The notes under the pieces: model-generated
Database searches by the model: none
Told to the model about the DNA's origin: nothing
Seen by the model: the letters and a program-made list of their open reading frames with translations, nothing else
Position numbers and translations under genes: made by a program
Source: Leptospiraceae bacterium
GTDB lineage: Bacteria; Spirochaetota; Leptospiria; Leptospirales; Leptospiraceae
Length of the DNA: 64,000 nucleotides
Reading direction: 5' to 3'
Assembly (NCBI GenBank): GCA_016711485.1
Contig: JADJSX010000013.1
Location: 150,889 to 214,888, forward strand
Part shown: piece after piece, positions 12,105 to 15,118 of the stretch
Layout of the letters: each line of letters opens with the position of its first letter
Numbering within the stretch: the first letter of the stretch is position 1

Positions 12105-12845
12105 TTAAATTGTAACTAGACTATTTCCATTTATATGTTTAGCTTTCTTTTTTGCGTTAGCCGCCAGATCAGCGAGATCAACATGGGACAGACATTGACT
12201 TGCTGTTTCTTGAGTGACAACTCCTACAGATAGGCTTATGAGTGGGAAAAAAGTCTTTTCTCCCAACCTATTTTCTGAGTAGATTCCCCTCGCAATCACA
12301 TCGTCTTTTTTATAATGGGAAGGCACAAGTTCCTCAAATTCATTTAATACATTATTACAACGTTCAAACCAATCTATGCAAGTCAAAACAACTATAAAAT
12401 CGTCCCCTCCAACGTGTCCTATCATACCTTGTTTTTCAGTAATAGATTGAGATAATAAATCAGAAACCGCCTTAATGATATTATCCCCTGCTGAGTAACC
12501 ATACATATCATTATATGGCTTAAAATGATCTAAATCAAAATACGCAAATGCAAAAGGAATTTTATTTGCAAGAAGTCGGTTTATATGTTCGTTGACAGGT
12601 ACACTACCCGGAAGAAGGGTAAGAGGATTAGAATGTCTTGCATTCTTTATTTGTAGTCGAGTCATTTCTTCTAGAAGATCTAATACAGTGGCTACTCCAA
12701 AGTATTCACTACCATGGGTTACAATAAAAGCTGGGTCATTTTCCGTTCCTGCTTTTAATTGTTGGCTGATGAGTTCAATTGGCATATTATAATCTATGCT
12801 TAACGGAATTTTTGTATTGAATAAATGTATTGGGTTTTTTTCCAT
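12105..12845 (-). CDS. CBS-like N-terminal region + degenerate GGDEF domain protein (GGDDF)
   Basis: YFDLDHFKPYNDMYGYSAGDNII ... GHVGGDDF: GGDEF fold with D in place of the catalytic E. The first 20 codons overlap the upstream EAL gene, so the true start is probably the internal MPIEL Met at about 12785. Confidence 0.65.
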   Translation of the reverse strand: MEKNPIHLFNTKIPLSIDYNMPIELISQQLKAGTENDPAFIVTHGSEYFGVATVLDLLEEMTRLQIKNARHSNPLTLLPGSVPVNEHINRLLANKIPFAFAYFDLDHFKPYNDMYGYSAGDNIIKAVSDLLSQSITEKQGMIGHVGGDDFIVVLTCIDWFERCNNVLNEFEELVPSHYKKDDVIARGIYSENRLGEKTFFPLISLSVGVVTQETASQCLSHVDLADLAANAKKKAKHINGNSLVTI

Positions 12846-13851
12846 AAAGTTCCAGACCGTAGCGGTTTGAGAATAATTTTGAAAGAAACCTGTCTCTAAA
12901 AATAATTCCAGATGCTTGTTTATTATTTACAAGCGGTAGTATGGTTAAATTCTCGTTATCCTGAAATAACTGCATTACATCGCTGATGGGAGTCAGAGCA
13001 GAAACAGGATTGATTAATCTTGCTATATGAGAGGCTGTTTTTTTGCTATATGAGGTTATATGATTAGGTTGTAAAGATATGGTTTGAAATAAGTTGTTAT
13101 TAATTTTCTCTATAGGTTGAGCCGCCGGTTTAGCAAAATAAAAACCTTGTGCATACGTGATGCCTAACGATTCTACGGATTTAAATTCTTTTTCTGTTTC
13201 GATTCCTTCTGCAATAATTTTGCAACCGAGAGAGTTTGCAAGATTTTGAATGGAATGTACAAATTTTAGTTTAATAGAATCATCAGGAATTCCTTGCATA
13301 AAATATTTGTCAATTTTCACATAATTCGGCTGTAGTTCTGACCAAAGCCTTAATCCCGAGTACCCTATACCAAGATCATCTAACGCAATTTCAAATCCCA
13401 TCGACTGAAAATGTTTTACAATATCTCGCATAGTTATATAATCAATAGTCGGGTGGTTTTCCGTGAGTTCGATTACAATGGATCTGCGATCAACGTTTAA
13501 TTCTTCCAAGTAATTTTCTGAAAGACTTTCCATAAACTTTGGATCAGACAGGACATAAGAGCTAACATTGATAAATAGCTTTTCCTTCAACTTTAGTTTT
13601 GCATAACTTTCTAATGTTTGTTTAATACAGGCAAATTCTAATTTTGCGTTCAGACTATAATATTCTGCCGTATCAAACAAACAATTTGGATTATGTAATG
13701 GACTATCCTGTGGTCCCCGAATCAAAGCTTCATATCCAACAATATTCTTATTAAATAAAGAAACAATCGGTTGAAAATAAGGAATCAGAATTTTATTATC
13801 TAAAATTCTGATTAACTCGTTGTGTAATGTTATACTCAAATTAAATACCAA
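12787..13851 (-). CDS. EAL-domain c-di-GMP phosphodiesterase with C-terminal CBS-like domain
   Basis: All EAL catalytic motifs present: YEALIR, ELTE, DDLGIGYSG, KIDKYF, EGIETE, QG; C-terminal ISDVMQ...ILPLVNNKQASGII resembles a CBS module. Confidence 0.8.
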   Translation of the reverse strand: MVFNLSITLHNELIRILDNKILIPYFQPIVSLFNKNIVGYEALIRGPQDSPLHNPNCLFDTAEYYSLNAKLEFACIKQTLESYAKLKLKEKLFINVSSYVLSDPKFMESLSENYLEELNVDRRSIVIELTENHPTIDYITMRDIVKHFQSMGFEIALDDLGIGYSGLRLWSELQPNYVKIDKYFMQGIPDDSIKLKFVHSIQNLANSLGCKIIAEGIETEKEFKSVESLGITYAQGFYFAKPAAQPIEKINNNLFQTISLQPNHITSYSKKTASHIARLINPVSALTPISDVMQLFQDNENLTILPLVNNKQASGIIFRDRFLSKLFSNRYGLELYGKKPNTFIQYKNSVKHRL

Positions 13852-15118
13852 TAGTCAGAAGAGAATAGTCATCCATTATTCGATATTCCTTTCTGAAATC
13901 TTCCCATTCTGTCATGATCAATTTATTTAACTCACTTGGATTTTTTCCTGTGAAACTTTTTAATACTTTTTCAATATTGTTAGTTCCAAATTCTTCTTTA
14001 TACATATTTTTCTGCTCAATAATTCCATCTGTGCATACAAATACAAAATCACCAGGTTTTACTTTTACTTTGACAGATTTTAAATCCAATGTTTCATTGA
14101 TTCCAAAAAAAGGCATTTTATCCAATTCTGTTTCAACAACATAGTCTGAAAGTCTGGCAAGTGCATCTTTTCTTTTTAACCAAATAAATCCATGACCATA
14201 ATCAAATACTTCGATTGTCTGTTTGGTTTTATCATGTAAAATAAAAACGCCAGTAGCATACATTTCCTCAGGAGTGAGATCATAAGCTAGTTTATTAATT
14301 TCTCTGAGTCTATCAGCTAATCGAAAGTTTGCGATATCATTTTGTTTTTCCATTTCAATCCATGTTTTAAAAATGGAACCTAAAACCATAACTACATTAG
14401 AAGCTTTTAATCCTTTTCCGCAAACATCTAAATGAATAAACAGAGATAGGTTTTCATTTAATGAAAATGTTCCCACATAATCTCCGCCGGGTCCGTGTAA
14501 GCAGATCACACTTGATTCAATGGACAAATTCGATTCTTGCGCAAAATTCTTATTAGTTTCTAAAGATAATTTTAACTGAGAGTCTTCACAAAAGGACATA
14601 TCTTTTTCTAAAAATCGGTTTAATCCATCTAATACTTTTTGAATGGAACAAACTCCATAGAAAAATCCATCTATTGTGATAATGAACGGATCAAATCGAA
14701 TATCTTCCTCTCGTTGCATTAGAAGATAAGATGTCTCCGAAAGATTTGCATAAGCATCAATGCATAAAACTCTCTTGTCATAGATACTTTGGACTGTGAC
14801 TTCAGGACGCAATAATAACTCCTTGGAGAAAGGGCCTTTGCTTAGAGCGGCTAATAGCTTTTGCCTCATCGTGTATCCAATGATTTCATTTGATGTATCA
14901 AATACTGGAAGGAAATCCAATTCTGTATTATTCATATATTCTTCATACAAAGTTTGGAACCGCATTTCATTATCAATATAGAAAAACTTTCCATCCTCTT
15001 CTAATGATTTCGCTGGAGTTGCTAATTTTCCACATTCATAAGCAGAAAACACTGGTCTGTTCTCTCCGTAATAATCTGCAAAGGATTTATTTTTTTGTTC
15101 AAGTTCTATCAATTTCAT
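13841..15118 (-). CDS. CBS-pair + PP2C/SpoIIE-family (RsbU-like) serine phosphatase
   Basis: N-terminal tandem CBS-like segments; C-terminal HGPGGDYVGTF ... DVCGKGLKAS ... VCTDGI motifs of SpoIIE/RsbU PP2C phosphatases; overlaps EAL gene start by 11 bp. Confidence 0.7.
   Translation of the reverse strand: MKLIELEQKNKSFADYYGENRPVFSAYECGKLATPAKSLEEDGKFFYIDNEMRFQTLYEEYMNNTELDFLPVFDTSNEIIGYTMRQKLLAALSKGPFSKELLLRPEVTVQSIYDKRVLCIDAYANLSETSYLLMQREEDIRFDPFIITIDGFFYGVCSIQKVLDGLNRFLEKDMSFCEDSQLKLSLETNKNFAQESNLSIESSVICLHGPGGDYVGTFSLNENLSLFIHLDVCGKGLKASNVVMVLGSIFKTWIEMEKQNDIANFRLADRLREINKLAYDLTPEEMYATGVFILHDKTKQTIEVFDYGHGFIWLKRKDALARLSDYVVETELDKMPFFGINETLDLKSVKVKVKPGDFVFVCTDGIIEQKNMYKEEFGTNNIEKVLKSFTGKNPSELNKLIMTEWEDFRKEYRIMDDYSLLTIGI

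Follow-up and report, generated by a model that had tools for sequence, protein, structure and literature searches.

The minus-strand locus at positions 12105-15118 of a 64,000-nucleotide stretch of a Leptospiraceae genome (GenBank assembly GCA_016711485.1, contig JADJSX010000013.1, positions 150,889 to 214,888; hereafter the window) contains two genes and not three. One encodes a PP2C phosphatase with a pair of CBS domains, and the other encodes an EAL-CBS-CBS-GGDDF protein that is interrupted in this assembly. The explanation that we consider probable for the locus as a whole is that these are two co-directional genes at the 3′ end of pstC-pstA-pstB in an uncultured wastewater member of the Leptospiraceae, the second of which is split by an extra C. 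An initial annotation had recognized three minus-strand open reading frames (ORFs), and their coordinates and motifs were recovered by ORF listing and Pfam: ORF A at 13841-15118 (425 amino acids), ORF B at 12787-13851 (354 amino acids) and ORF C at 12105-12845 (246 amino acids), with overlaps of 11 nt between A and B and 59 nt between B and C. The count of three genes did not survive comparison with conspecific assemblies; ORFs B and C are the halves of a single gene, split by a 1-nt insertion at 12832-12834 that has no counterpart in those assemblies. The proposed domain identities (an RsbU-like PP2C, an intact EAL domain, a GGDDF variant and CBS modules) were confirmed, with Pfam prediction, suggested there as a check, returning SpoIIE/PP2C (E 1e-27), EAL (E 1e-53) and GGDEF (E 9e-16). 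The features of the locus are as follows, with the supporting evidence in parentheses; L and P numbers designate the contigs and proteins used for comparison.

13841-15118, minus strand: PP2C gene, CBS pair and RsbU/SpoIIE-type phosphatase, 425 amino acids (Pfam SpoIIE E 1e-27, AlphaFold2, Foldseek)
14645-15046, minus strand: N-terminal CBS pair of the PP2C protein, residues ~25-158 (Pfam CBS in the family, AlphaFold2 model, hhalign)
14555-14644, minus strand: long linker helix of the PP2C protein, residues 159-188 (AlphaFold2 model)
13847-14524, minus strand: PP2C catalytic domain, residues ~199-424 (invariant alignment columns, Pfam, Foldseek)
12105-13839, minus strand: EAL-CBS-CBS-GGDDF gene, 577 amino acids if in frame, interrupted here (conspecific contigs L001 and L002; protein P0197)
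13120-13833, minus strand: EAL domain, residues ~3-240, with the EAL motif at 13723-13731 (Pfam, motif conservation, Foldseek)
12865-13038, minus strand: CBS repeat 1, residues ~268-325 (Pfam CBS, AlphaFold2 secondary structure)
12832-12834, minus strand: frameshift site in codon P336, CCC versus the conspecific CC, 3′ of an A7 run at 12835-12841 (blastn against L001 and L002; in-frame proteins P0001, P0195, P0196 and P0197)
12787-12789, minus strand: early stop codon ending the EAL-CBS1 fragment, preceded by 17 out-of-frame residues, NTFIQYKNSVKHRL... (ORF translation)
12642-12837, minus strand: CBS repeat 2, residues ~335-399 (Protein Data Bank (PDB) profile match to the PH0107 CBS domains, AlphaFold2 model, hhalign)
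12108-12629, minus strand: GGDEF-like domain with the motif GHVGGDDF (GGDDF at 12396-12410) and no RxxD I-site (Pfam GGDEF E 9e-16; motif in 119/120 homologs)
15267-17950, minus strand: pstC (16976-17950), pstA (16093-16992) and pstB (15267-16067), phosphate ABC transporter directly upstream (Pfam annotations in L001)

Interruption of the EAL gene

The PP2C protein of the window occurs with identical sequence on four other metagenome contigs, two of which cover the whole locus and come from independent read sets: L001 (ERR1352927, 13.9 kb) and L002 (SRR11674025, 7.2 kb). Over 12001-15300 these contigs are 99.2% (L001) and 99.8% (L002) identical to the window, and 98.9-99.3% identical across their full lengths. 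On both, gene callers predict a single 577-amino-acid EAL plus GGDEF protein that starts 1 nt past the PP2C stop codon, and the intact gene begins with a TTG at 13839. The sole alignment gap that blastn places in 12001-15300 sets GGAAAAAAACC-AATACA in L001 and L002 against GGAAAAAAACCCAATACA in the window, which corresponds to one extra C. The protein sequences agree with this comparison: clustering at 90% identity groups three proteins that are full-length and in frame (P0001, P0195 and P0197) with an in-frame fragment that spans the site (P0196), and the sequence of P0197 matches the repaired window protein exactly. A single polypeptide is therefore not encoded in the window as assembled (+1 C at 12832-12834), whereas it is in four other conspecific assemblies, and the nearest 120 homologs are all single chains of 564-616 amino acids.

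The extra base disrupts codon P336, which belongs to the linker joining the two CBS repeats (...RYGLELYGKK|PIHLF...), such that CBS1 stays in ORF B and CBS2 lies in ORF C. The proposal that the pair of ORFs represents a formerly single EAL-CBS-CBS-GGDEF protein split in two is thus borne out by the one 577-amino-acid ORF of the near-identical conspecific assemblies, and the biological unit in this species is one 577-amino-acid protein, whether the insertion is an error or real. The halves are deposited in GenBank as MBK8395884.1 (350 amino acids, out-of-frame tail included) and MBK8395883.1 (226 amino acids), annotated as 'EAL domain-containing' and 'GGDEF domain-containing', and should be read as one RapA/PA3258-type protein.

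The annotation had also entertained a deliberately divided module. In its functional form this would mean that EAL-CBS1 and CBS2-GGDDF are made as two polypeptides and reassemble through a non-covalent CBS1:CBS2 Bateman module. The pairing interface of CBS repeats could in principle form across separate chains, and an ATG in the new frame (12845), 4 codons upstream of the insertion, opens the 246-residue CBS2-GGDDF ORF. However, in the intact allele this ATG is an accidental out-of-frame TAT-GGA. ORF C starts 59 nt upstream of the ORF B stop and lacks an evident ribosome-binding site, and the start chosen by the Prokaryotic Genome Annotation Pipeline (PGAP) for this half, M21, would cut off the beginning of CBS2. 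Furthermore, split homologs number 0 among the 120 nearest, and the conspecific alleles are in frame. The insertion itself is a single base beside a homopolymer, unique to this assembly, and a second gene of the window is broken likewise (see below). We consequently regard a functional division of the EAL gene as very unlikely. An extended form, in which a real insertion, the split Bateman enzyme and the neighboring CBS-PP2C constitute a pst-linked module reading one adenylate/phosphate-status signal through related CBS sensors, would place partner-switching and the degradation of cyclic di-GMP (c-di-GMP) in a spirochete under the control of a split module, and is likewise highly improbable. 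Programmed frameshifting at the A7 run, or slippage there during transcription, was rejected as the main explanation, the conspecific alleles being simply in frame.

Origin of the extra base

To place the insertion among other differences, ~22 kb of the window was compared with independent assemblies. Over 4834-18715, indels other than the coding C insertion are limited to two homopolymers between genes: an A9/A10 run near 18356 and a run of T near 18680. A second frameshift was found at 41875-41881, where the window carries T7 and four assemblies (L017-L020; 41037-43299 compared) carry T6; this insertion shortens a DUF6962 gene (41346-42207, plus strand) from 286 to 191 amino acids, whereas the gene is intact in L017-L020. 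Each indel between the window and all overlapping assemblies lies at a homopolymer run, and a whole-window scan for homopolymer-containing frame-switch junctions returned only these two coding sites, besides the normal pstC/pstA overlap. Because a second window gene suffers the same kind of break, at a T7 run, relative to four assemblies, we favor a homopolymer-associated assembly error in this metagenome-assembled genome (MAG), which, judging from the sequence comparisons, is probably the source of the extra C. Nanopore-based MAGs are known to retain homopolymer indels as residual errors (PMC9262707). In ~20 kb of coding sequence compared, the window has two private +1 insertions, both at A/T runs of 7 nt and each at variance with two to four independent assemblies, a pattern that fits residual long-read homopolymer indels; the size of the source contig, 231,548 bp from wastewater, also agrees with long-read assembly.

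Several considerations weigh on the other side. A comparison of assemblies does not separate error from real mutation; real frameshifts also favor homopolymers, and two broken genes in 64 kb are within natural pseudogene loads. The comparison of 22639-28888 (6.25 kb) revealed no indels. The sequencing platform is moreover our assumption, the MBK83... accessions being ones that we take to belong to a Nanopore activated-sludge MAG set. Joint Genome Institute (JGI) metagenome contigs scanned for the exact frameshift-flanking sequence, with A6-A8 and CC/CCC allowed, gave no matches and hence no allele count.

A real, strain-private frameshift would have different consequences, namely a recent pseudogene, or an EAL-CBS1 protein truncated after 336 native residues, ending in a short out-of-frame tail and lacking the Bateman/GGDDF regulatory half, with CBS2-GGDDF poorly made or not made at all. 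Single-nucleotide differences of 0.15-1.1% between the window and the other assemblies indicate a distinct strain or population, and homopolymer-adjacent slippage is the commonest natural frameshift mechanism too. Coding density in the rest of the window is normal, and the EAL gene is a lineage-specific add-on without a counterpart in three sister species, and may be dispensable. However, the two private insertions fit a technical signature better, and no other signs of decay are present, the protein on both sides of the break being identical to the intact allele P0197. We therefore consider a real frameshift possible but doubtful, and retain assembly error as the preferred origin of the extra C. 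Gene models of this MAG need caution in either case, given at least one more homopolymer frameshift nearby.

The EAL-CBS-CBS-GGDDF protein

The product of the second gene is one EAL-CBS-CBS-GGDDF protein of the PA3258/RapA/DdpB architecture, which has already been described. Pfam assigns the EAL domain to residues 13-242 of ORF B (E 1e-53), the EAL signature is complete (EALIR, N, ELTE, DDLG, KID, EGIET and QG), and the catalytic motifs are conserved in 120/120 homologs. The AlphaFold2 model of the intact 577-amino-acid protein (predicted local distance difference test (pLDDT) score 78) comprises EAL at 1-240, CBS1 at ~268-325, CBS2 at ~335-399 and a GGDEF-like domain at ~413-577, and the top Foldseek matches of the intact protein are EAL phosphodiesterase (PDE) domains, with active PDEs among them.

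The C-terminal domain departs from the active-cyclase signature, reading GHVGGDDF, with D for E at the fourth residue and His for Arg before the motif. Among the 120 nearest homologs, 119 share the form GH[IV]GGDDF, which is thus a family signature under selection rather than a product of decay. By its sequence, the domain keeps the DxD metal site, the guanine-recognizing N and D of canonical cyclases, and GG. No RxxD I-site occurs five residues upstream of GGDDF, where the sequence reads ...ITEKQGMIGHVGGDDF. The initial annotation had taken GGDDF as the mark of a likely receptor rather than a cyclase, a view that is not supported: the I-site is missing, GGDDF occurs family-wide, and published work reports apparent PDE and residual diguanylate cyclase (DGC) activity for PA3258 (PMC12900916) and an active enzyme with the same motif, GSU1937 (PMC8835794). 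By analogy with GSU1937, then, GGDDF need not exclude cyclase activity. In ORF C, only the first 92 of the 161 positions of the GGDEF profile align, the C-terminal half being divergent. A Pfam match to Cas10-Cmr2_palm2 at ORF C residues 133-233 (E 1e-3, below threshold) was attributed to the general GGDEF/palm relationship.

Comparison with characterized enzymes suggests how these domains may work together. PA3258 has an EAL-CBS-GGDEF architecture with GGDDF (PMC12900916, PMC8835794); in heterologous expression it shows apparent PDE activity, and inactivation of the EAL domain leaves residual DGC activity (PMC12900916). RapA of Pseudomonas fluorescens, described as a PA3258 homolog, is a verified PDE induced by the Pho regulon and, in phosphate-starved cells, depletes c-di-GMP (PMC12900916, PMC9394441, PMC3032545). 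The window protein shares with both the order of an N-terminal EAL domain, a CBS module and a C-terminal GGDEF-like domain, and with PA3258 the GGDDF variant; E57 of PA3258 and E37 of the window protein are the respective EAL glutamates. In contrast to the pseudomonad proteins, the host is a Leptospiraceae spirochete, the nearest relatives are from methanotrophic Methylococcales, and the gene carries a 1-nt interruption in the window. The kinship with PA3258 and RapA is proposed from the common architecture, the common motif and the statements of these papers. Bordetella DdpB (BB2957) likewise has GGDDF and two CBS domains between GGDEF and EAL, with an ESL motif (PMC12805831); the ESL of DdpB is degenerate, whereas the EAL signature of the window protein is full. 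Finally, CC3396, with a GEDEF domain, is cited in PMC8835794 as a protein with PDE activity only. Enzymes of the CC3396/PdeA type resemble the window protein in combining an active EAL domain with a non-canonical GGDEF domain that keeps nucleotide-binding residues, but here the EAL domain comes first, the opposite order, a Bateman pair separates the two domains, and the motif is GGDDF, not GEDEF. The GEDEF domain of CC3396 binds GTP and activates the EAL domain. On this pattern, the intact EAL domain would hydrolyze c-di-GMP, while the CBS pair would act as an adenosyl-ligand module and GGDDF as a GTP module, both in a regulatory capacity. A PDE whose Bateman and GGDDF domains serve as regulatory nucleotide sensors is the best-supported model, and we infer that it is likely to be correct.

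Outside the species, the closest relatives are 58-65% identical and belong, where named, to Methylobacter, Methylovulum or unclassified gammaproteobacterial MAGs. Recent horizontal transfer from Methylococcales was considered and rejected: the GC content at third codon positions (24-27%) matches that of host genes, and the protein branches outside that group in a neighbor-joining tree. The data allow no more than an old transfer or a shared subfamily.

The CBS modules and the PP2C phosphatase

Pfam matches to CBS were sub-threshold for the window ORFs alone (E 0.047 for A, E 0.016 for B and no match for C); the CBS assignment nevertheless survived profile searches at the level of the families. 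In the EAL family, the 138-residue inter-domain region matched Pfam CBS in 14/14 sampled members (best E 9e-10; repaired window sequence E 4e-4), and a profile of this region searched against the PDB matched almost exclusively proteins named as CBS-domain proteins, the best being PH0107 and a CBS signal-transduction protein (E ~3e-4). In the PP2C family, Pfam CBS was found in 41/47 members (best E 3e-10). The AlphaFold2 models of both proteins show two beta-alpha-beta-beta-alpha repeats in the CBS region. Whole-protein Foldseek searches were dominated by the PP2C and EAL domains and provide no direct test of CBS, and the assignment thus relies on the profile evidence. Aligned with each other by hhalign, the CBS pairs of the two families gave a probability of 98.8% (E 8e-17) over 117 columns covering both repeats and the linker, and therefore both are Bateman modules; their 21% identity is ordinary for two CBS-pair families and does not demonstrate a common ligand. 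The statement that each of the three putative genes carries CBS modules accordingly holds for the presence of CBS domains but not for their distribution, in that ORFs B and C share one Bateman pair with one repeat each.

The first gene encodes a cytoplasmic RsbU/SpoIIE-type PP2C phosphatase with an N-terminal Bateman sensor. Pfam places SpoIIE/PP2C at residues 227-423 of ORF A (E 1e-27), and the AlphaFold2 model (pLDDT 90.6) consists of the CBS pair, a long helix (159-188) and then the PP2C domain. Foldseek matched the C-terminal domain to SpoIIE (E 4e-14), RssB, SiaA, the RsbU domain of Rv1364c, and RsbX. Residues invariant across 47 family sequences are GGD213, D231-V-x-G234-K-G, D364-G365 and D416-D417, and include the metal-binding aspartates D213, D231, D364, D416 and D417. 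The protein thereby shares with the RsbU, SpoIIE, SiaA and RssB phosphatases the PP2C fold, Pfam SpoIIE membership and the conserved metal-binding aspartates, whereas its sensor is a CBS pair and not an RsbU N-domain, a response-regulator receiver or HAMP. It differs from partner-switching PP2Cs also in being kept beside pstCAB instead of rsbV/rsbW-like genes. The family numbers 72 proteins, and the named ones are all from Leptospiraceae, Leptospirales or Spirochaetia MAGs or from unclassified 'bacterium' MAGs; a scan of GTDB genome contigs with the PP2C query returned two loci only, and the genome of the window itself is apparently no GTDB species representative. A distant homolog at 37% identity (L014) is flanked by STAS genes, but neither the window nor L011, L013, L015 or L016 yielded a STAS gene in tblastn with the two STAS proteins of L014. 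Both genes of the locus are ordinary members of known families.

Genomic context and the pst linkage

Orthologs of the PP2C gene (69-74% identity) follow pstC-pstA-pstB in three other Leptospiraceae species (L011/L012, L015 and L016), making the window the fourth species with this arrangement, and the pst genes before PP2C in L011, L015 and L016 are orthologs with 85-89% identity in the same order. A more distant homolog at 43% identity (L013) is preceded by a PstS-like gene together with genes for a paired histidine kinase and response regulator. None of L011/L012, L015 and L016 has an EAL gene downstream of PP2C, and therefore the conserved partner of the phosphatase is the pst cluster and not the EAL gene.

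This distribution bears on the reading of the locus as a co-evolved signaling unit, in which a common adenosyl-nucleotide signal, read by related CBS sensors, would jointly gate partner-switching and c-di-GMP turnover. In favor of this reading are the clear homology of the two Bateman modules, which extends across both repeats and the linker (see above), and the arrangement of the PP2C and EAL genes, which abut with 1 nt from stop to start and no intervening terminator. However, the adjacency is limited to this species, and the PP2C orthologs of the three others have unrelated downstream genes. The closest EAL relatives, from Methylobacter and Methylovulum, are without a PP2C neighbor, as seen in the three Methylococcales neighborhoods of EAL homologs examined. 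The identity of the CBS pairs is no proof of a shared ligand, and no STAS substrate gene was detected in the window by tblastn with the two STAS proteins. The functionally linked trio envisaged in the initial annotation is thus not borne out, and we consider it improbable as an explanation of the locus.

The 1-nt spacing between PP2C and the EAL gene, and the lack of a predicted terminator from pstB to the end of the EAL gene, suggest that these two genes are probably transcribed with, or just after, pstCAB. Over 12105-15267 no terminator-like site was detected, and promoter-like sites were fewer than in shuffled controls, making that scan uninformative on transcription units. Under co-transcription, c-di-GMP degradation and the CBS-gated PP2C would be expressed together in this species. 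It is conceivable, as the least certain step, that both genes are induced with pst under phosphate limitation, as is rapA in P. fluorescens. Three observations count against this last step: pstS was not detected in the window by tblastn; no CTGTCAT-N4-CTGTCAT repeat, the E. coli-type Pho box consensus, occurs at ≤4 mismatches in the 814 bp preceding pstC, a difference from the Pho-induced RapA; and the EAL gene is missing at the same position in three related species, and therefore any Pho linkage of this gene is recent. The pst-linked CBS-PP2C of this uncultured Leptospiraceae clade nevertheless hints at a tie between phosphate/adenylate status and a partner-switching phosphatase, and the RapA-like PDE directly behind PP2C in this one species echoes the Pho-controlled RapA circuit of P. 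fluorescens. Both are modest leads, and neither alters knowledge of these families.

The pst clusters differ in detail among the species. The relatives have pstS-pstC-pstA-pstB, while the window has instead an 814-bp AT-rich non-coding stretch (17951-18764) before pstC. The relatives also carry a conserved gene of ~223 codons between pstB and PP2C (L011, 4257-4928; L015, 9220-9921; L016, 7748-8419), the product of which has no Pfam match and bears a Fic-like 'FIEGNHRTGS' motif; tblastn detected no copy in the window, where the gap between pstB and PP2C is 148 bp. Rfam and tRNA scans returned nothing in the 12105-15118 locus, and the only tRNA in the window is tRNA-Ser at 22161-22246.

Other genes of the window

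The surroundings are signaling-dense (5010-7391, 27590-28888 and 33342-36611 on the plus strand, and 42208-42981 on the minus strand), the types represented being HisKA-HATPase-REC-GGDEF, PAS-PAS-GGDEF, a MASE1-PAS hybrid kinase and a stand-alone PP2C. The initial annotation had mentioned two active GGDEF cyclases and two PP2Cs in the window; outside the locus, the window encodes GGDEF proteins of full length at 5010-7391 and 27590-28888 and a single PP2C at 42208-42981. A 546-amino-acid fusion of GNAT acetyltransferase and CN-hydrolase (nitrilase-family) domains (10431-12071, plus strand; Pfam annotations in L001) converges on the end of the EAL-GGDDF gene. Divergent from pstC is a gene for a 366-amino-acid protein with two hemerythrin HHE domains (18765-19865, plus strand), and a DDE_5 transposase (20215-21018, plus strand; E 3e-41) lies ~1.1 kb upstream of the tRNA-Ser(GGA) gene, which is also on the plus strand. 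Farther away, 46751-48505 (plus strand) encodes a 584-amino-acid protein made up almost entirely of ankyrin repeats (Ank_2, E 4e-123), and 30755-33247 (plus strand) encodes an 830-amino-acid protein with a major-vault-protein shoulder domain (E 8e-24), a vault repeat and SPFH/Band 7, a resemblance to major vault protein that is unusual in a bacterium.

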